The notes below the pieces were generated by a model that did no database searches, had not been told where the DNA came from, and worked only from the letters and a program-made list of their open reading frames with translations. Made by a program: the position numbers and the translations under genes. Shown one piece after another: positions 299 through 11,022 of a stretch of DNA of 11,759 nucleotides (the first letter of the stretch is position 1; each line of letters begins with the position of its first letter). The DNA lies in the UHGV virus genome UHGV-1580179. One strand, 5' to 3'. The DNA comes from a virus.

Positions 299-1321
299 TT
301 ATAGTTTAACCACCATCCTATCAATGGCTTCTAAGCAAGATTGTTTATATGGGGCATTAACTTTTACCCTTCTGTTCATAACTCGTACACTACCTGTTGG
401 TAGGATCGAAAATGGACATCCTTTAGCAAAGGCAACAACACCAGTTGTCTGAAAATCTTTAATATTTACCACTCCCTCTTCAATATTTTCGAAGTCGAAA
501 ATTTCAGGGTTACTTAGTAATAGTTGCTGAATATCATTATCGATTGATTTTAGAACTGCGGCATAGGCTGATGCAGGCCCCATATACTGTGTAAGACGGT
601 TTTTTGCGATCATATGAACTTTGGGTAGTGGTCTGCTCACCGCGGTAAGTTTGTTTGCAAATGCGTAGGATGCATAAATATCAGATGGCAACTTTAATCC
701 ATAAATCAAAGAGAAAGCATTTTGAATGGCGCGACGAGAGGAATCATCAGCCATAACTGGCAAGATGAGCTTTTCTACAGCAGCTAATGCTATTTGAGTA
801 TAAATTGAAAAACTAGGATTACAGTCAATAAATAAAACATCGTACTCATCATTTAGATCTTTAATAAGATCATTAATCCAATCAATGATGCTTACCCATG
901 CATTTGTTCCTGGAATCTGCTGATTAGCAAGAGTGTTGATGGCGTTTGCTTGAAGCTCAAGAAGCGGGTCACCGCATACCAACGATATATTGGCTGGAAT
1001 ATGTTCGTTGAATTTTTTTGGGTGTGTCAAATAATCGTGGGCATCAACAATGGGTTTTTGATAAGGCGTCGGGAGGCGCATTTGGAAGTAGCCACCCAAA
1101 GTACATCTATTATTTATATCATGCCTAGTCAATAAGTTTATGCTTCCATTACCTATTAACCCCCCAAGAAAAAGCTCTGACAAGTTTGCCTGTGGGCACA
1201 CATCAATAACCAACACGCGCTCAAGCGGGTGAATTTCTGCATATCTGCAAATAGCTTGAAATGACAGGCTTGTTTTCCCTGTTCCTCCCTTGTTGTTCCA
1301 TATAGCATATTTCTTCATCAT
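299..1321 (-). CDS. Orphan ParA/MinD-family P-loop ATPase (340 aa) with ~90-aa C-terminal extension of unknown function
   Basis: Deviant Walker A KGGTGKTS near the N-terminus (MMKKYAIWNNKGGTGKT); ParA-type RVLVIDVCPQANLS motif; Walker B-like YDVLFIDCNPS. Start chosen at ATG 1321 (tandem ATG at 1318) with AGGAG 7 nt upstream; the ORF-track start at 1393 is a GTG without an RBS. Occupies the cI-to-OL slot where lambda has rexA-rexB. AT-rich relative to neighbours. Confidence 0.8.
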   Translation of the reverse strand: MMKKYAIWNNKGGTGKTSLSFQAICRYAEIHPLERVLVIDVCPQANLSELFLGGLIGNGSINLLTRHDINNRCTLGGYFQMRLPTPYQKPIVDAHDYLTHPKKFNEHIPANISLVCGDPLLELQANAINTLANQQIPGTNAWVSIIDWINDLIKDLNDEYDVLFIDCNPSFSIYTQIALAAVEKLILPVMADDSSRRAIQNAFSLIYGLKLPSDIYASYAFANKLTAVSRPLPKVHMIAKNRLTQYMGPASAYAAVLKSIDNDIQQLLLSNPEIFDFENIEEGVVNIKDFQTTGVVAFAKGCPFSILPTGSVRVMNRRVKVNAPYKQSCLEAIDRMVVKL

Positions 1322-1357
1322 AAACTCCTGGTTAACGATGTCATTGCTGGTTAATGT

Positions 1358-1435
1358 TTTACCATTGGTAAAGTGGTGCACCAAGAGTGACACGGTAAAC
1401 CAAATAGATCAAGACTTATGGTAAACGATTTACCA
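1358..1435. repeat. Two perfect palindromes sharing half-site TGGTAAA, plus one extra half-site, in the cI-ParA intergenic region
   Basis: tttaccaTtggtaaa 1358-1372 and tggtaaaCGAtttacca 1419-1435, with a single GGTAAACC half-site at 1394-1401. Centres are about 62 bp apart, immediately upstream of the ParA-like start. Confidence 0.6.
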
Positions 1436-1489: not shown

Positions 1490-2206
<717 letters not shown>

Positions 2207-3990: not shown

Positions 3991-5871
3991 ATGACTCCAA
4001 GTGAACTGAGCGACCTGCTTTGGGCGCAGGTTGACAGGGTGGCTCCGCACCTGTTGCCAAACGGCAAGAAAGAGGGGCATGAGTGGGTTGCCGGTAATGT
4101 CAACGGTGACAAGGGAAACAGCCTTAAGGTCAACCTTAGCGGCAAGAAAAAATGGGCTGATTTCGCCGAGGGAGACGGCGGTGACATGCTTGATTTGTGG
4201 ATGGCATGTCGTGGAATTAACCTGCATCAGGCTATGCAGGAAGCGAAAGCATTTCTCGGTATCAAGGATGACGATCACCATTTCGATGCCAGACGTGAGA
4301 AAAAATTCTCCAGACCTGATCGCAAGAAAATCGCCCGCTACGTTACCAGAACAGAATCCCATCTTGAGTACCTGCAATCGCGTGGCATATCGCCAGAAAT
4401 CGTAAAGCGCTACGAGGTTGTCAGCGGCAAGGTGTGGAATGGAGAGCGGGAACTGGATGCTCTGGTGATTCCGTACAAACGCGATGGTGAGTTGTTGCAG
4501 GTCAAGCGAATCAGCACTGAGCGCCCGGACGGGAAGAAAGTCATTATGGCAGAAGGTGATTGCGAACCTTGCCTGTTCGGATGGCAGGCTCTGGACGCTG
4601 GCGTGAGGGCGGTTGTACTTTGCGAAGGCGAAATTGATTGTATGAGCTATGCGCAATACGGCATCTCGGCGTTATCCGTACCGTTTGGTGGAGGGAAAGG
4701 CGCTAAGCAACAGTGGATTGAGTTTGAGTATCACAACCTCGACAGGTTTGAGGAAATATTCATCTCGATGGACGTTGATGATGTTGGTCGTGAAGCCGCA
4801 AGGGAAATCGCAAGCCGACTCGGTGAACATCGTTGCCGTCTTGTTACTCTGCCGTGCAAAGACATCAACGAATGCCTGATGAACGGTGTTACCGAGGATG
4901 AAATCTGGCAGTACATCGGCACGGCATCCTACTTCGATCCTGAAGAACTCTACAGCGCGCGAGAGTTTTACCAGGACACTATCAACGCTTTCTACGGCAA
5001 GCAGCAGTATCTGTTTAATCCACCGTGGGAATCTCTGGCAGATAAATTCCAGTTCCGTGAGGCAGAGTTGACGCTGGTCAATGGTGTGAACGGTCACGGA
5101 AAAACGGAGGTTGTCGGGCATATGGCACTTGAGGCAATGCGTCAGGGTGTGAAGACGTGCATCGCGTCACTTGAGCTGAAGCCTGGTATTCTCCTTAAGC
5201 GCCTTACCCGTCAGGCGACGTGCTGCAAGATGCCGCCAGTGCTGGAAATTGACTCTGCATTTAAATTTTATGACGAAAGACTTTGGGTGTTTGGCCTGAC
5301 CGGAACGGCGAAAGCCGACAGGCTGATCGAAATATTCGACTACGCTCGCCGCCGATACGGGATCCAGTTATTCATCATCGACAGCCTGATGAAATGTGGC
5401 ATAGGCGACGATGACTATAACGGGCAGAAGGCGTTTGTTGACTCGATTTGCGACTTCAAAAACAAAACAAACTCCCACGTCATTCTCGTTACTCACTCGC
5501 GAAAAGGAGACAGCGAAGAAAAACCAACCGGGAAAATGGACGTAAAAGGCTCTGGAGCGATAACAGACCTGACAGACAACCTTTTCATCATCTGGCGTAA
5601 CAAGGCTCGCGAGAGAGCGTTACAGAGAGTTCAGAGTGGTGAAAAGATGTCAGAGAAGGACGAACAGCTACTGGCATCTCCGGCATCTGTTTTGATGCTT
5701 GAAAAACAACGTAACGGCGAAGGTTGGGAAGGTGGTGTCCCGTTGTTCCTTGACGAGCAATCGCACCAGTTCCTGCAACTTGAATCAGGATCGCCATATA
5801 GCTACATCGCCAATATGCCGAAATCGGAATATGACGAGGCGTGGCGACAGGAAAACGTGACGGAGTATTAA
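3991..5871 (+). CDS. Bifunctional DNA primase / replicative helicase (626 aa; TOPRIM plus DnaB/SF4-like ATPase)
   Basis: TOPRIM-like acidic motif ...AVVLCEGEIDCMSYAQYGI...FISMDVDDVGREAA. Walker A LVNGVNGHGKTE and Walker B-like LFIIDSLMK in the C-terminal half. ATG 3991 is preceded by GAGG. Confidence 0.8.
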   Translation: MTPSELSDLLWAQVDRVAPHLLPNGKKEGHEWVAGNVNGDKGNSLKVNLSGKKKWADFAEGDGGDMLDLWMACRGINLHQAMQEAKAFLGIKDDDHHFDARREKKFSRPDRKKIARYVTRTESHLEYLQSRGISPEIVKRYEVVSGKVWNGERELDALVIPYKRDGELLQVKRISTERPDGKKVIMAEGDCEPCLFGWQALDAGVRAVVLCEGEIDCMSYAQYGISALSVPFGGGKGAKQQWIEFEYHNLDRFEEIFISMDVDDVGREAAREIASRLGEHRCRLVTLPCKDINECLMNGVTEDEIWQYIGTASYFDPEELYSAREFYQDTINAFYGKQQYLFNPPWESLADKFQFREAELTLVNGVNGHGKTEVVGHMALEAMRQGVKTCIASLELKPGILLKRLTRQATCCKMPPVLEIDSAFKFYDERLWVFGLTGTAKADRLIEIFDYARRRYGIQLFIIDSLMKCGIGDDDYNGQKAFVDSICDFKNKTNSHVILVTHSRKGDSEEKPTGKMDVKGSGAITDLTDNLFIIWRNKARERALQRVQSGEKMSEKDEQLLASPASVLMLEKQRNGEGWEGGVPLFLDEQSHQFLQLESGSPYSYIANMPKSEYDEAWRQENVTEY

Positions 5872-5902
5872 ATGACCATCTACATTACTGAGCTAATAAC
5901 AG

Positions 5903-5930
5903 GGGCTATTTACACAGTAGCCCTTTTTTA
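5903..5930 (+). terminator. Intrinsic terminator after the primase-helicase gene
   Basis: Stem gggcta (5903-5908) pairs with tagccc (5918-5923), followed by tttttt (5924-5929). Confidence 0.55.
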
Positions 5931-5956
5931 TTGGATTAAGAACGAGGGGGATCCTG

Positions 5957-6169
5957 ATGGACACCGTTAACGGAATGTGTTCAGACGCACCGCGTGCCAA
6001 GAAATGTAAATGCGGAAAATCACCGACAATATTCGACATGGAGAACGGGTGCCAAATCTACTGCGCTAACCACGCTGCTGTGGCGGCCGCGAATTATCGC
6101 AGTGCGGTAACGGAGTGGAATAACCTGAAATCTGTTAGAGAGGGAAGTCATGAAAAAACTAACCTTTGA
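5957..6169 (+). CDS. Small Cys-rich hypothetical protein (70 aa; possible zinc ribbon)
   Basis: GAGGGGG RBS upstream of ATG 5957. Cys pairs in MCSDAPRAKKCKCGKS...NGCQIYCANH. Overlaps the ninB start by about 20 nt. Confidence 0.5.
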   Translation: MDTVNGMCSDAPRAKKCKCGKSPTIFDMENGCQIYCANHAAVAAANYRSAVTEWNNLKSVREGSHEKTNL

Positions 6170-6566
6170 AATTCGATCCCCAGCACATCAGCAAAACGCT
6201 ATTCACGCAGTACAGCAAATCCTTCCAGACCCAACCAAGCCAATCGTAGTGATCATTCAGGAGCGCAACCGCAGCATTCGGCAAAATGCACGCCTTCACG
6301 CGATGCTATCTGAAATAAGTAAGAAGGCTACATATCATGGAAAAGCAAGAAATATTGAGTTTTGGAAGGGGTTATTCGTTTCTGGTTGGCAGATTGCAAC
6401 CAATCAGCACCCTGAGATTATATCAGGGTTAGAAGGTGAGCTAATAAACATCAGAGAGAGTACGGCGACTCTATCTGTAAAAAAAATATCCGAAATAATG
6501 GACTACATAGAAGCATATTGTGCCATGAACTCAATTCATCTTAGCGAATGGAGGAATTATGATTGA
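6150..6566 (+). CDS. ninB: NinB-family recombination protein (138 aa)
   Basis: The first ~36 aa (MKKLTFEIRSPAHQQNAIHAVQQILPDPTKPIVV.IQERNRS) match lambda NinB as I recall it; the remainder is divergent but collinear. GAGGGA RBS. Confidence 0.8.
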   Translation: MKKLTFEIRSPAHQQNAIHAVQQILPDPTKPIVVIIQERNRSIRQNARLHAMLSEISKKATYHGKARNIEFWKGLFVSGWQIATNQHPEIISGLEGELINIRESTATLSVKKISEIMDYIEAYCAMNSIHLSEWRNYD

Positions 6567-7161
6567 GGTTTGGGTAGATATCGAAGGGATTCCATTTTAT
6601 CAGGTTAGCAATAAAGGAAATTTTAGGTCTATTACGAGGGAAGTTACAGTAACATCAACCAGACAGAGGCCATATAAGAAAATAATTAATGGCACTAGTG
6701 TAAAACCATTCAAGTGCAAGTCGACAGGATATCTTCAAATAAAGGTATACGGTATGAAATACAGCGCCCACAGGATAGTTGCGAAAGCATTCTGTACAGG
6801 GTTCTGTGATGGCTTGGTAGTTAATCACAAAAATGGGCGAAGAGATGACAATAGGGCTGATAACCTTGAATGGGTATCACATTCTGAAAACTCAAAACAC
6901 GGATATAAACAAAATGGAAGAATACCTATATCGCTAGGTAAATTTAGTGGTGACCATCCTGCCAGTAAAGCTGTTATTTCTACTGACATGAAAACTGGGG
7001 AGGAGGTTTATTATGAAGCAGCTATGGATGCTGTCAGAGAAGGATTTGATAGTTCGTCAATTAGTCGTTGCTGTAATGGCGAAAGCTCATATCACAAAGG
7101 AAGATTCTGGCGATTTGCAAATGAAAAAATGAAAGCGAGATGGGGAGATCGGGCTGCATGA
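6559..7161 (+). CDS. HNH homing endonuclease (NUMOD4 plus HNH_3; 200 aa) inserted at the ninB 3' end
   Basis: NUMOD4-like WVDIEGIPFYQVSNKGNFRS; HNH motif LVVNHKNGRRDDNRADNLEWVSHSEN. AGGA RBS and ATG overlap the ninB stop. The last 9 residues (KARWGDRAA) equal the lambda NinB C-terminus as I recall it. AT-rich. Confidence 0.85.
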   Translation: MIEVWVDIEGIPFYQVSNKGNFRSITREVTVTSTRQRPYKKIINGTSVKPFKCKSTGYLQIKVYGMKYSAHRIVAKAFCTGFCDGLVVNHKNGRRDDNRADNLEWVSHSENSKHGYKQNGRIPISLGKFSGDHPASKAVISTDMKTGEEVYYEAAMDAVREGFDSSSISRCCNGESSYHKGRFWRFANEKMKARWGDRAA

Positions 7162-7685
7162 CTATCAAATCAAATACGCCAGCACACGACAAGGACTGCT
7201 GGCAAACGCCGCTTTGGCTTTTTGATGCACTGGATATTGAGTTTGGATTCTGGCTGGATTCGGCAGCGAGCGACAAAAATGCTCTGTGTGCTCACTGGCT
7301 AACTGAGGCCGACGACGCGCTCAATTCTGAGTGGCTAAGCCACGGTGCAATCTGGAATAACCCACCGTACAGCAATATCAGGCCGTGGGTGGAAAAAGCC
7401 GCTGAGCAGTGCATGCAACAGCGACAGACGGTAGTTATGCTTGTGCCAGAGGATATGTCAGTCGGATGGTTCAGCAAGGCTCTGGAGAGTGTCGACGAAG
7501 TTCGCATTATCACTGATGGACGGATTAATTTTATCGAACCATCGACAGGGCTGGAGAAGAATGGAAACAGCAAAGGTTCCATGCTGCTGATTTGGCGACC
7601 GTTCATCAGTCCTCGACGGATGTTTACTACCGTATCCAAAGCGGCATTGATGGCGATCGGGCAGGGCGTCAGGAGGGCGGCATGA
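7158..7685 (+). CDS. Phage Dam-family DNA N6-adenine methyltransferase (175 aa)
   Basis: NPPY catalytic motif ([10 protein letters not shown]) and N-terminal [25 protein letters not shown] typical of the phage Dam family (PF05869-like, from memory). ATGA overlap with the preceding stop. Confidence 0.8.
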
Positions 7686-7864
7686 GACGACAGCGACGAA
7701 GTATCACCGACATCATCTGCGAAAACTGCAAATACCTTCCAACGAAGCGCTCCAGAAATAAACGCAAGCCAACCCCAAAAGAATCTGACGTAAAAACCTT
7801 CAACTACACGGCTCACCTGTGGGATATCCGGTGGCTAAGACGTCGTGCGAGGAAAACAAGGTGA
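7682..7864 (+). CDS. ninE: NinE protein (60 aa)
   Basis: [60 protein letters not shown] matches lambda NinE from memory. ATGA overlap with the MTase stop. Confidence 0.85.
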
Positions 7865-8896: not shown

Positions 8897-9619
8897 ATGA
8901 ACGAGCTGATAAATAGCAACGTCATCAAAATGACTAGCATTGAAATCGCTGAGCTTACAGGTAAGCGTCATGACAATGTGAAACGTACCATCGAAACGCT
9001 GGCTAAAAATGGTGTTATCCGGCTTCCTCAAATTGAGGTTTCCGAAAGAATCAATAACTTAGGGTTCAATGTTCAGTACGAGCATTACGTCTTCGAAGGC
9101 GAACAAGGTAAGCGCGACAGCATTATTGTCGTCGCTCAGTTGTCGCCGGAATTCACCGCTCGTCTTGTTGACCGTTGGCGAGAGCTTGAAGACGCTGCGG
9201 TTAATATCCCCAAAACGCTACCAGAAGCGTTGCGCCTTGCTGCTGATCTTGCTGAGCAGAAAATGCAACTGGAAAACCAGCTCGCAATTGCCGCACCTAA
9301 AGTTGAGTTTGCCGATCGCGTTGGCGAGGCCAGCGGAATTTTGATTGGAAACTTTGCAAAGGTTGTTGGAATTGGTCCAAACAAACTGTTTGCGTGGATG
9401 CGCGATCACAAAATCCTTATTGCTTCAGGTTCCCGGCGCAATGTGCCAATGCAGGAATATATGGATCGCGGCTATTTCACAGTGAAAGAAACAGCGGTCA
9501 ACACAAATCACGGAATACAGATATCGTTCACCACAAAAATCACCGGGCGTGGTCAACAGTGGCTGACCAGAAAGCTGCTCGATAACGGAATGCTGAAAGT
9601 AACAGGGGAGGCTGCTTAA
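8897..9619 (+). CDS. Rha-family regulatory protein with C-terminal KilA-C/ANT domain (antirepressor-like; ~240 aa)
   Basis: Rha motif MTSIEIAELTGKRHDNVKRTIE. C-terminal ANT-like segment GNFAKVVGIGPNKLFAWMRDHKIL...QEYMDRGYFTVKE. Start is ATG 8897 (GAGAGGA RBS) or ATG 8891. Confidence 0.75.
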   Translation: MNELINSNVIKMTSIEIAELTGKRHDNVKRTIETLAKNGVIRLPQIEVSERINNLGFNVQYEHYVFEGEQGKRDSIIVVAQLSPEFTARLVDRWRELEDAAVNIPKTLPEALRLAADLAEQKMQLENQLAIAAPKVEFADRVGEASGILIGNFAKVVGIGPNKLFAWMRDHKILIASGSRRNVPMQEYMDRGYFTVKETAVNTNHGIQISFTTKITGRGQQWLTRKLLDNGMLKVTGEAA

Positions 9620-9909
9620 TGGCTAACCTACGCAAAGAAGCTCGCGGCAGAGAATGCCAGGTACGTATTTACGGTGTATGCAATGGAAATCCTGAAACTA
9701 CAGTTCTGGCACATTACCGGATGGCTGGAATTTGCGGAACTGGAATGAAGCCTGACGACCTGATCGGTGCATGGGCTTGTAGTGACTGCCACGCGGAGAT
9801 CGACCGACGCACAAGGATTCTCGACAACAAAGACGCCAGACTTTACCACCTCGAAGGTGTGATCAGGACGCAGGCGATACTGCTGAAGGAGGGGAAGATT
9901 AAGTCATGA
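9619..9909 (+). CDS. ybcO: YbcO-like (DUF1364) small Cys/His-rich protein (96 aa)
   Basis: 96 aa with a Cys/His cluster (CQVRIYGVCNG...ICGTG...CSDCHAEID). Position immediately upstream of rusA matches the DLP12 order ybcO-rusA-ylcG-Q. Sequence identity not verified. Confidence 0.5.
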   Translation: MANLRKEARGRECQVRIYGVCNGNPETTVLAHYRMAGICGTGMKPDDLIGAWACSDCHAEIDRRTRILDNKDARLYHLEGVIRTQAILLKEGKIKS

Positions 9910-10268: not shown

Positions 10269-10408
10269 ACAAAGCATTCGAACGATATATGCGCCAGCGT
10301 TATGGCAATCGCTATGACCTGACGCGAGATGTTGAAGGTTTCTACTGTAGTGAAATTGTGAAACGAATGTTTGAAGTTTGGTGTCATTGCAAAGGATGGG
10401 AGGTCTGA
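10265..10408 (+). CDS. ylcG: YlcG-like small protein (47 aa); below the ORF-track size cutoff
   Basis: ATG 10265 overlaps the rusA stop (ATGA). Translation MNKAFERYMRQRYGNRYDLTRDVEGFYCSEIVKRMFEVWCHCKGWEV. Stop TGA 10406-10408 overlaps the next ATG (TGATG). Same position and size as DLP12 ylcG. Confidence 0.5.
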   Translation: MNKAFERYMRQRYGNRYDLTRDVEGFYCSEIVKRMFEVWCHCKGWEV

Positions 10409-11022
10409 TGCGGCTAACTCCAGTATTCAGCATGGTTAACTTCATTAATGACGCGCACTTTCGCCGCGTATGGAGACACCCGAAGAAAACCATCAACTCT
10501 AGCCAGAAAGCATGGGTTCATTACATGTTACAGGTATGGGGCAAGGTTAATGCCGGAGATTGCTCTCCAGGTGGTGCAATTAACGTTATCGGTCGTCTGA
10601 TGATTCGCAGTCAGTGGAGCGATGACAAGGCTAAGCAGATAGAGTCTGTCGTCATGCGCCTGTACGAAGAAGATGGGCTGCGCGGAGATGTGCTATACAA
10701 GAAAGCTCGCGAACTGGTCATTCCTCAATCATCGTTTAGCCACATCATCACTCTCGCCAAAGAATCAGATGATGCGGCTTTCGTTGAACGTGTGATGGTC
10801 AAGACTTTTCACCGTGAAAGCCCCGTCCGCGATGTAGCTATTAAGCGATATTGCAATCGCAATTGCACGCAAGATATAGCCAGGATGATTTCTTATATAA
10901 CAGGTGCTGATATTCAATATTGTCGTAAGCGAGTGGTGTGGTGTGAGAAAGTGCTGGAGTCAGAAATGTTTTATGCAATGAAACGAGAATTGGAGAAAGA
11001 ATTTCCATTGATAGCGGCCTGA
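10408..11022 (+). CDS. Putative late-gene antiterminator Q (204 aa), assigned by position and Cys motifs
   Basis: ATG 10408 with GGGAGG RBS 4 nt upstream. Last gene before the late promoter/terminator and lysis cassette. Cys pairs (CNRNC, C-x6-C) are compatible with a zinc-binding Q. Sequence not recognised as a specific Q type. Confidence 0.5.
   Translation: MRLTPVFSMVNFINDAHFRRVWRHPKKTINSSQKAWVHYMLQVWGKVNAGDCSPGGAINVIGRLMIRSQWSDDKAKQIESVVMRLYEEDGLRGDVLYKKARELVIPQSSFSHIITLAKESDDAAFVERVMVKTFHRESPVRDVAIKRYCNRNCTQDIARMISYITGADIQYCRKRVVWCEKVLESEMFYAMKRELEKEFPLIAA

Follow-up and report, generated by a model that had tools for sequence, protein, structure and literature searches.

Free-standing homing endonuclease genes of the Seg and Mob type, known from T-even phages, stand alone, are wedged between or into conserved genes, have a sporadic distribution and are expected to co-convert flanking markers, with a linked resistant allele of the neighboring gene travelling along. 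Similar traits are seen or expected in the window analysed here, the whole 11,759-nucleotide (nt) stretch of the UHGV virus genome UHGV-1580179, which by its open reading frames (ORFs) and Pfam matches is the early-right region of a lambdoid phage. In this region, an ORF of 200 amino acids (aa) for a predicted HNH endonuclease follows and overlaps a divergent allele of ninB (orf). The Seg and Mob genes are GIY-YIG or HNH genes of virulent T4-like phages and are usually intergenic; unlike them, the window ORF belongs to a temperate lambdoid phage, has overlapping start and stop codons at both of its ends and closes with nine codons of the gene that it displaced.

The closest proteins described are I-HmuI of phage SPO1 (PDB 1U3E) and its relatives I-HmuII, I-BasI and I-TwoI, which are HNH/N nicking homing endonucleases and phage-encoded like the window ORF. 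This family consists of site-specific nicking enzymes, some of which cut intron-containing and intronless alleles alike (PMC3428280, PMC9410903). As in I-HmuI, the HNH core of the window protein is followed by a C-terminal helix-turn-helix (HTH)-like DNA-binding module ending in HKG..W/FR(F/Y). The I-HmuI gene lies within a group I intron that interrupts a DNA polymerase gene, whereas the window ORF has its own Shine-Dalgarno sequence (SD) and ATG, no intron and an additional N-terminal NUMOD4.

A third comparison is with the DUF968 proteins, fusions of an Orf-family protein and an HNH nuclease in phages of Staphylococcus, Listeria and Enterococcus (PMC4118853, PMC2034487). In both, a DNA-binding protein of the Orf family is physically linked with an HNH nuclease within the recombination/replication region of a phage; unlike the DUF968 fusions, which are single polypeptides with a zinc-finger HNH, the window has two ORFs overlapping by 8 nt and a nuclease of the I-HmuI type. 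No Pfam match to DUF968 was found at E<=0.01 in the NinB or the HNH protein, their matches being NinB for the former and NUMOD4, HNH_3 and I-HmuI NUMOD-like for the latter.

Organization of the cassette

From the sequence comparisons below, it is proposed as rather likely that the 200-aa ORF is a free-standing I-HmuI-like HNH homing endonuclease gene, moving as an 856-nt cassette together with its own ninB allele. The features concerned are the following:

6150-6566, plus strand: chimeric ninB/orf, 138 aa (ORF list; Pfam NinB, 136.2 bits)
6150-6275, plus strand: conserved 5' third of ninB, codons 1-42, up to the ERNRS motif; left homology arm and left mosaic boundary
6276-7131, plus strand: low-GC cassette of 856 nt, made of the 3' two-thirds of the AT-type ninB and HNH codons 1-191
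6559-7161, plus strand: NUMOD4-HNH_3-(NUMOD-like HTH) endonuclease ORF, 200 aa (Pfam, PHROG and 1U3E)

The window was compared with HNH-less phages whose flanks are 96-98% identical to it (HK97 and Stx2c_5044), and lambda was also aligned. Identity to the HNH-less phages stops after 6275 and resumes at 7132; relative to HK97, lambda and Stx2c_5044, 856 nt take the place of 285 nt of the lambda type from ninB codon 43 on, a net gain of 571 nt that agrees with the length difference between the BLAST places. The GC content is 0.34-0.46 in the cassette and about 0.5 in the flanks. The region is AT-rich, as a first-pass annotation made from the sequence alone had said of the endonuclease gene; the low-GC block, however, starts near 6300, inside ninB, and not at the start of the HNH gene.

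Searches covered phage records, 5426 complete Escherichia coli genomes, a set of 5.8 billion proteins and IMG/VR loci. The AT-type ninB segment is present in 63 E. coli-type phage records and in SEN22, a P22-like Salmonella phage (present twice), and the HNH gene gives the same counts. A query spanning both was found in 77 of the 5426 E. coli genomes, with the whole query covered in 77 of 77, and neither the phage nor the E. coli collection contained an AT-type ninB that lacked the HNH gene. The AT-type ninB allele and the HNH gene are one present/absent unit, a compound cassette. About 65 of the 340 phage records that share the flanks carry it, a sporadic distribution; many phages besides HK97 and Stx2c_5044 have flanks of 96-98% identity and lack it. 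The earlier view of the HNH gene as a discrete insertion holds in that its presence is polymorphic among lambdoid phages, but the gene travels with a ninB allele, and no precise empty site for it alone was found in the phage or E. coli collections.

The cassette is 98-100% identical among carriers, against 81-98.5% for the 5' part of ninB, and at least three unrelated NinB N-termini are joined to it at RNRS/IRQNARLH. At its other end, the gene next to the junction of the HNH gene with AAAGCG differs between carriers (dam, a ninC-like gene, a ninD-like gene or ninE). The carriers, whose replication modules differ, include Sepvirinae Shiga toxin (Stx) phages, siphoviral lambdoids, the P22-like Salmonella phage and prophages with replication genes of the DnaB or the Toprim type. 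In SEN22, the same cassette has about 73-80% nucleotide identity to that of the window and the similarity ends at the same ATG (codon 191), so that the right end of the cassette is fixed. The SEN22 HNH ORF closes with GCCGCATGA (GCC GCA TGA), which are the last two codons and the stop of a P22-type ninB, overlapping ninD; the resident ninB tail left behind is therefore nine codons long in the window and two in SEN22.

A chimeric and short ninB allele

The PF05772 core domain is present in the window NinB, the Pfam match (136.2 bits) running over residues 3-130 against profile positions 2-129 of 131. Over its first 126 nt, ninB hardly differs between the window and lambda, HK97, Stx2c_5044 and SEN22, the similarity being lost beyond alignment column 136; the rest of the gene, codons 43-138, is a divergent, AT-rich 'short' allele of NinB. 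Over the whole protein, BLASTP gives 48% identity to lambda NinB, residues 1-42 being almost the same and the remainder highly divergent. After residue 42 the window NinB is about 25-30% identical to lambda-type NinB (25.6% for the divergent part against the lambda-like NinB of P22), and the 280 nt of ninB upstream of the HNH junction have no megablast match. The R41/N46/W-or-H core motif region is kept.

The 3' end of ninB reads GAA TGG AGG AAT TAT GAT TGA (E W R N Y D stop), so the protein ends in SEWRNYD. With phmmer, residues 1-130 align with residues 1-126 of lambda NinB/Orf (PDB 1PC6, E=2.3e-33), and both BLASTP and phmmer against 1PC6 put window residues 130-133 opposite lambda residues 126-129; the S-E-W of the window thus corresponds to lambda S128-D129-E130 and not to L135-E136-W137. 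By alignment, the window NinB stops at lambda-equivalent residue 134 and has an incomplete lambda-type C-terminal helix alpha5, with W137, R140 and W141 missing; the codons of lambda K138-A146 are read only within the HNH ORF, in another frame than ninB. The alpha5 helix makes a modest contribution to DNA binding in lambda Orf (PMC4118853), and carriers of the cassette make a NinB without the end of it.

This alignment bears directly on the first-pass annotation, in which the HNH ORF alone had recently inserted into a lambda-type ninB between E136-W137 and K138, truncating NinB by a few residues and supplying RNYD from the insert. Such an event is highly improbable here, even though the nucleotides of the HNH ORF tail are of the lambda type and the hexamer GAATGG precedes the HNH junction in the window and AAAGCG in HK97. 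In the 280 nt before the junction ninB is not of the lambda type, diverging from codon 43 with 856 nt replacing 285 nt. The shared 'EW' is a coincidence, since SEW aligns with lambda residues 128-130; S-E-W or E-D-W is the own sequence of this NinB clade, present in relatives without any lambda tail, and SEWRNYE/D occurs in SEN22 and in clade members that lack that tail. Nor can RNYD simply be the product of a recent insertion, as W-R-x-Y-D/E endings recur in NinB homologs that are 55-86% identical. Finally, the AT-type allele never occurs without the HNH gene in the phage or E. coli collections. Other elements of the same annotation, namely a ninB ending in SEWRNYD and a stop, an AGGA ribosome-binding site and the ATG of a 200-aa NUMOD4/HNH ORF, are borne out by the sequence and by Pfam.

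Two further arrangements were rejected. A group I intron or intein does not fit, since a search of 5800-7800 against Rfam at E<=1 found nothing, the extra DNA is not a multiple of three (580 nt between the TGG ending at 6551 and the AAA starting at 7132) and it is filled by the ORF, with 7 nt only from the previously proposed junction to the HNH ATG and 0 nt after ORF codon 191. A NinB-HNH frameshift fusion was discarded because the two ORFs are in different frames and, on reading of the sequence only, no slippery sequence is visible in GGAGGAATTATGATTGA.

A homopolymer of eight A residues lies within ninB at 6479-6486. At this run NinB is frameshifted in the IMG/VR loci L128 and L130 (also in L037 and L042), where it ends in LSVKKYPK and a stop; this could be a sequencing error or real inactivation.

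The borrowed ninB tail and the dam junction

At the right boundary, the HNH ORF runs into the end of the resident ninB and overlaps the next gene:

7132-7161, plus strand: lambda-type ninB remnant, the last nine codons (KARWGDRAA) and stop, forming the C-terminal tail of the HNH ORF
7158-7685, plus strand: dam, N6-adenine methyltransferase (Pfam Dam, 219.5 bits)

The HNH ORF ends in KARWGDRAA, and its TGA (7159-7161) overlaps the dam ATG (7158-7160) as ATGA. The lambda and HK97 NinB proteins carry the same C-terminal end, and the agreement extends to the nucleotides of 7132-7161 (AAAGCGAGATGGGGAGATCGGGCTGCATGA), of which the first 17 nt equal the lambda ninB 3' end and the last 17 nt equal that of HK97. 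The match of AAAGCGAGATGGGGAGATCGGGCTGCATGA to the lambda and HK97 ninB ends is far beyond chance. The two points that had been stated here before, a lambda NinB ending at the C-terminus of the HNH ORF and an ATGA coupling kept with the downstream methyltransferase, were both confirmed, the former by the lambda and HK97 protein ends and the nucleotide match and the latter by the overlap of the HNH TGA with the dam ATG.

Within the tail, GGAG at 7144-7147 is the SD for dam, 10 nt upstream of its ATG, whereas the last codons of the cassette itself, AAT GAA AAA ATG, contain no SD-like sequence. The tail thus carries both GGAG and the ATGA overlap, and keeping it keeps the dam initiation region intact, which suggests that it was retained to preserve the initiation region of the downstream gene. 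In SEN22, where there is almost no tail, the equivalent codons are GAT GAG AGG ATG, with an AGGA 7 nt ahead of the ATG of ninD. Among carriers, the 3' half of the tail differs according to the next gene. Because the tail is identical to E. coli lambda-type ninB while the cassette is highly diverged, it would come from the resident gene or from later recombination within the tail; judged by this comparison, it must have a source other than the ancestral ninB of the cassette.

The end of dam (RRAA and stop) lies within GGCGGCATGA (7667-7685) and overlaps ninE via the same GCGGCATGA junction, which is mirrored by the end of the ninB tail (DRAA and stop) within GCTGCATGA (7143-7161). This GCGGCATGA-style junction is general to the operon, and modules could be exchanged through the short boundary motif GCNGCATGA common to the two junctions. 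In carriers without dam, the junction of the tail with ninE reads GGGCGGCATGAGACGAC at its end (L045).

Domains and conservation of the HNH protein

The start and the domains of the 200-aa ORF are located as follows:

6550-6566, plus strand: ninB/HNH junction, with SD GGAGG at 6550-6554, HNH ATG at 6559 and ninB stop TGA at 6564-6566
6565-6747: NUMOD4 (Pfam, 51.2 bits, cutoff 23.4)
6763-6894: HNH_3, residues 69-112 (Pfam, 43.5 bits, cutoff 24.8)
6991-7101: I-HmuI NUMOD-like region (Pfam, 19.2 bits, sub-threshold, cutoff 27)

The comparison of the protein that had been suggested earlier gave matches both to PHROG 59 'HNH endonuclease' (3.6e-38) and to the I-HmuI structure 1U3E (E=1.9e-13, residues 55-186), and no NCBIfam model matched it. 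DNA-reading modules are present, as NUMOD4 lies above its cutoff and the 1U3E alignment, which continues through residue 186, spans the sub-threshold NUMOD-like region. In the HNH/N beta-beta-alpha-metal core, H90, N92, N98, N102, E110 and N111 are invariant in six homologs. By its sequence, the ORF encodes an I-HmuI-like HNH endonuclease, probably a nicking one.

The ninB and HNH ORFs overlap by 8 nt in different frames, with GGAGG(A) spanning 6550-6555, and the 8-nt overlap is kept in SEN22, in Yersinia, in L012 and in loci with other HNH families. Synonymous sites are saturated between homologs, the proportion of synonymous differences (pS) being above 0.75 in nearly all pairs, and for this reason nonsynonymous divergence (dN) and pS are reported without dN/dS. 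The dN values are 0.14-0.42 for HNH and 0.08-0.31 for the NinB segment; together with the saturated synonymous sites, the HNH values indicate that the ORF has been kept functional.

In one IMG/VR locus (L052 1133-2965, 2713896798_000010), the HNH gene is split by an IS5-type insertion with a 326-aa transposase ORF. The HNH match also falls in two places in the phage record LC616041.1.

Proposed mobility of the cassette

In the proposed mechanism, the cassette would have taken the place of codons 43-137 in a ninB of the lambda/HK97 type. Its left join is in the conserved ERNRS region, which is homologous in all ninB alleles; its right join, sharp and non-homologous, immediately precedes the nine final codons of the resident gene. 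Lacking a stop of its own, the HNH ORF is read in frame through the nine resident codons to the old ninB stop, and since this readthrough retains the SD and the ATGA overlap of the downstream gene, the operon would remain translationally coupled. The enzyme would nick or cut the lambda-type ninB of HNH-less lambdoid phages, either co-infecting or resident, and the break would be repaired from the cassette-bearing genome, with crossovers on the left in the conserved 5' third of ninB and on the right in the tail or the downstream gene. As conversion must reach leftward to the 5' third of ninB, the divergent ninB allele would always be dragged along; this AT-type allele is presumably resistant to cleavage, without the target.

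Several points weigh against this mechanism. Ordinary lambdoid module shuffling at conserved boundaries could give the same mosaic with no endonuclease needed. The NinB-HNH pairing is old, and the two genes have diverged together under purifying selection, which is more than a short-lived selfish element needs. No precise empty site differing by the HNH gene alone was found in the phage collection, searched with blastn in distant mode and tblastn, in the complete E. coli genomes, in the 5.8-billion-protein set or in IMG/VR; the nearest HNH-less relatives have from about 44% (tblastn, phages, divergent part) to 54-66% identity. The alignment to the uninterrupted lambda and HK97 ninB, which had been recommended for this purpose, defined the junctions of the cassette but did not recover a precise empty target site. 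In addition, all six homologs have Asn where I-HmuI has the Asp preceding the catalytic His (VVNHKNG against VVDHKDG). This Asp presumably helps bind the metal ion in I-HmuI, so the nuclease activity of the window protein cannot be assumed. The copy broken by IS5 in one prophage indicates that the HNH gene is dispensable at least in some lysogens.

A different benefit is conceivable for the same enzyme. As an exclusion nuclease, the HNH protein would nick the DNA of rival lambdoid phages and be kept for that benefit, gene conversion being a by-product. I-HmuI-like nickases can act as anti-phage effectors, such as NixI of PLE against ICP1 (PMC9410903), and both the long-term purifying selection on the HNH gene and its place within the early/delayed-early operon agree with this; but it makes the same prediction as homing, cleavage of HNH-less relatives, and these data do not separate the two. 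It is regarded as improbable.

NinB-HNH pairs in more distant relatives

In the large protein search, NinB homologs with 55-86% identity are 137-139 aa long and end in W/G-R-x-Y-D/E and a stop. NUMOD4-HNH genes follow such NinBs with an 8-nt overlap in Yersinia kristensenii, in a metagenome-assembled genome (MAG) labelled Acinetobacter and in metagenomic phages, while the NinB-HNH overlap of Pantoea is 32 nt. The identities of the NinB segment to that of the window are 0.86, 0.72, 0.61 and 0.68, and those of HNH in the same genomes 0.78, 0.66, 0.53 and 0.64. For the insertion proposed in the first-pass annotation this cuts both ways, since lambda NinB does end in KARWGDRAA, but the HNH gene is a long-standing neighbor of this NinB clade in distant relatives.

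This conservation supports the main alternative, a functional partnership, in which the short NinB and the HNH nuclease would form a conserved two-gene module for the initiation of recombination, an ordinary lambdoid accessory module and not a selfish element. The nuclease would nick or break the DNA and Orf would load RecA or Red-beta, as a split counterpart of the DUF968 Orf-HNH fusions. The same overlapping pair is present in Yersinia, Pantoea, Serratia, the Acinetobacter-labelled MAG and many lambdoid contigs of IMG/VR, identity decreases in step in NinB and HNH, and the synonymous sites of both have reached saturation. NinB+HNH fusions have been reported and NinB has been proposed to collaborate with nucleases (PMC2034487, PMC4118853), which also counts for a partnership. 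Nevertheless, the pair is rare in E. coli (77 of 5426 genomes), the HNH protein has the modular, sequence-reading architecture of a homing nickase and not the small zinc-finger HNH of DUF968, and a copy disrupted by IS5 persists. A partnership of this kind is possible but unlikely.

The wider neighborhoods of the HNH gene bear on both interpretations. In a survey of 85 loci encoding HNH relatives, most relatives above 200 bits lie directly after an Orf-family gene belonging to one of three divergent subfamilies, which are the AT-type, a clade ending in RWTQKDNWGGRY and a stop, and YbcN-like proteins that match NCBIfam PRK09741 with 181 bits (cutoff 164). The occurrence of close HNH relatives behind three deeply divergent Orf subfamilies, YbcN/PRK09741 among them and again with the 8-nt overlap, favors a partnership. 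The genes after YbcN-like Orf proteins with this overlap are at L020, L058, L061, L064, L066 and L067; their HNH ORFs end in WRFEGERNE and a stop, without a NinB-like tail. A minority of the HNH relatives adjoin a DUF1367-like gene instead of an Orf-family gene, and the occurrence of close HNH homologs after this unrelated gene argues against a partnership. In Enterobacter phage vB_Ecl_MII_001 (L018 1792-2833), an HNH ORF ending in FADERMAA and a stop, as in SEN22, lies 7 nt after a 149-aa DUF1367-like gene in which only the first ~70 of the 198 DUF1367 profile positions match, and which may be truncated or divergent; the arrangement is also found at L053, L055 and L056.

Short NinBs are also followed, in the same overlapping arrangement, by members of two other HNH families (HNH_3+AP2), and an HNH remnant has also been found:

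L009 3410-3958, L131 ~2405-2961 and L133 ~2411-2871: HNH_3+AP2 loci
L014 2913-3095: HNH remnant of 60 aa, starting MIDWRYY

The presence of these two families behind short NinBs can be counted for a partnership; the swapping of HNH families at one site, with the 60-aa remnant, fits a turnover of selfish genes and speaks against it. HNH genes seem to land, or to be turned over, repeatedly at the 3' junction of Orf genes.

Many HNH ORFs end in segments that resemble a NinB C-terminus, each followed by GCNGCATGA overlapping the next gene. The tails, each before a stop, are:

L009 (HNH_3+AP2 type): AIDWARRFGETKRAA
L131 (HNH_3+AP2 type): AIEWASRFGDKQRAAA
L010 (Pantoea): EIKQWIGYSGDKNRSAA
L012: VMRWAQQHNRSSAA
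L068 (RWTQKDNWGGRY-type clade): PEQWEAAA

The HNH-less NinBs of the same broad clade are 136-147 aa long and mostly end in [ED]R[WF]AA, DAWA or KKWSARWGA before the stop. HNH-linked NinBs are without that C-terminal segment, and W...AA tails stand on the HNH ORFs instead. As these sequences are read, the general idea of the first-pass annotation does hold at the family level, the HNH gene lying a few codons short of the ninB end and its ORF continuing through the tail so cut off; the event, however, is old. A broader version of the partnership would take the tails differently: Orf-family mediators (AT-type, the RWTQKDNWGGRY clade and YbcN/PRK09741) would be paired with interchangeable HNH nucleases in a functional and not parasitic association, in which the nuclease captured the C-terminal DNA-binding helix segment of NinB (W...R[WF]G...AA) and forms a split break-and-load initiator equivalent to the DUF968 fusions. 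This is doubtful, and rather unlikely.

At other places in the nin region, related prophages have a second HNH or NUMOD4 gene of a different kind; in E. coli MS 115-1, for instance, it comes after ninF. Loci with a second gene are L016 (3649-3842), L013 (2306-3043), L040, L041, L043, L048 and L050.

Previous annotation and implications

Many Stx phages and O157:H7 genomes already have identical or near-identical genes under the names 'HNH endonuclease' or 'NUMOD4 domain-containing protein'. The gene is thus known by annotation in many genomes and its description does not overturn current understanding. A literature search for ninB with HNH or homing endonucleases, or for free-standing endonucleases of lambdoid phages, found no description of the arrangement; the useful details are that the cassette is compound, that its HNH ORF ends in a borrowed ninB tail and that different HNH families have repeatedly come to occupy the 3' junction of Orf genes.

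If homing is the right explanation, the locus would be a clear case in temperate phages of a free-standing endonuclease gene that drags along a resistant allele of its target gene, and that embeds itself at no cost in a coupled operon by borrowing the last codons, ribosome-binding site and stop of the gene it displaces. It would also explain concretely how one sharp mosaic boundary arises in Stx-converting and other lambdoid phages, and would provide a candidate site-specific nickase whose natural target region, the lambda-type ninB, is defined. The less likely NinB-HNH partnership would instead bear on how lambdoid phages start recombination.

Other genes of the window

The remaining genes agree with a lambdoid early-right region, and they are arranged as follows:

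299-1393, minus strand: ParA/AAA_31-type ATPase gene, 364 aa, just past the lambda-like cI
1490-2203, minus strand: lambda-like cI (cro and cII come next in the gene order)
3991-5871: Toprim/DnaB-type primase-helicase, preceded by an HTH replication-initiator-like gene
5957-6169: ORF of 70 aa, upstream of ninB
7682-7864: ninE, after dam and followed by two antirepressor-like genes, ybcO, rusA and a holin gene
9619-9909: ybcO putative nuclease, just upstream of rusA
10378-11022: ORF of 214 aa between rusA and the holin gene, in the position expected for a late antiterminator

The 214-aa ORF at 10378-11022 gave no Pfam match at E<=0.001. The ParA/AAA_31-type ATPase gene at 299-1393 lies about where lambda has rexAB, and may be an accessory or defence gene expressed from the prophage.

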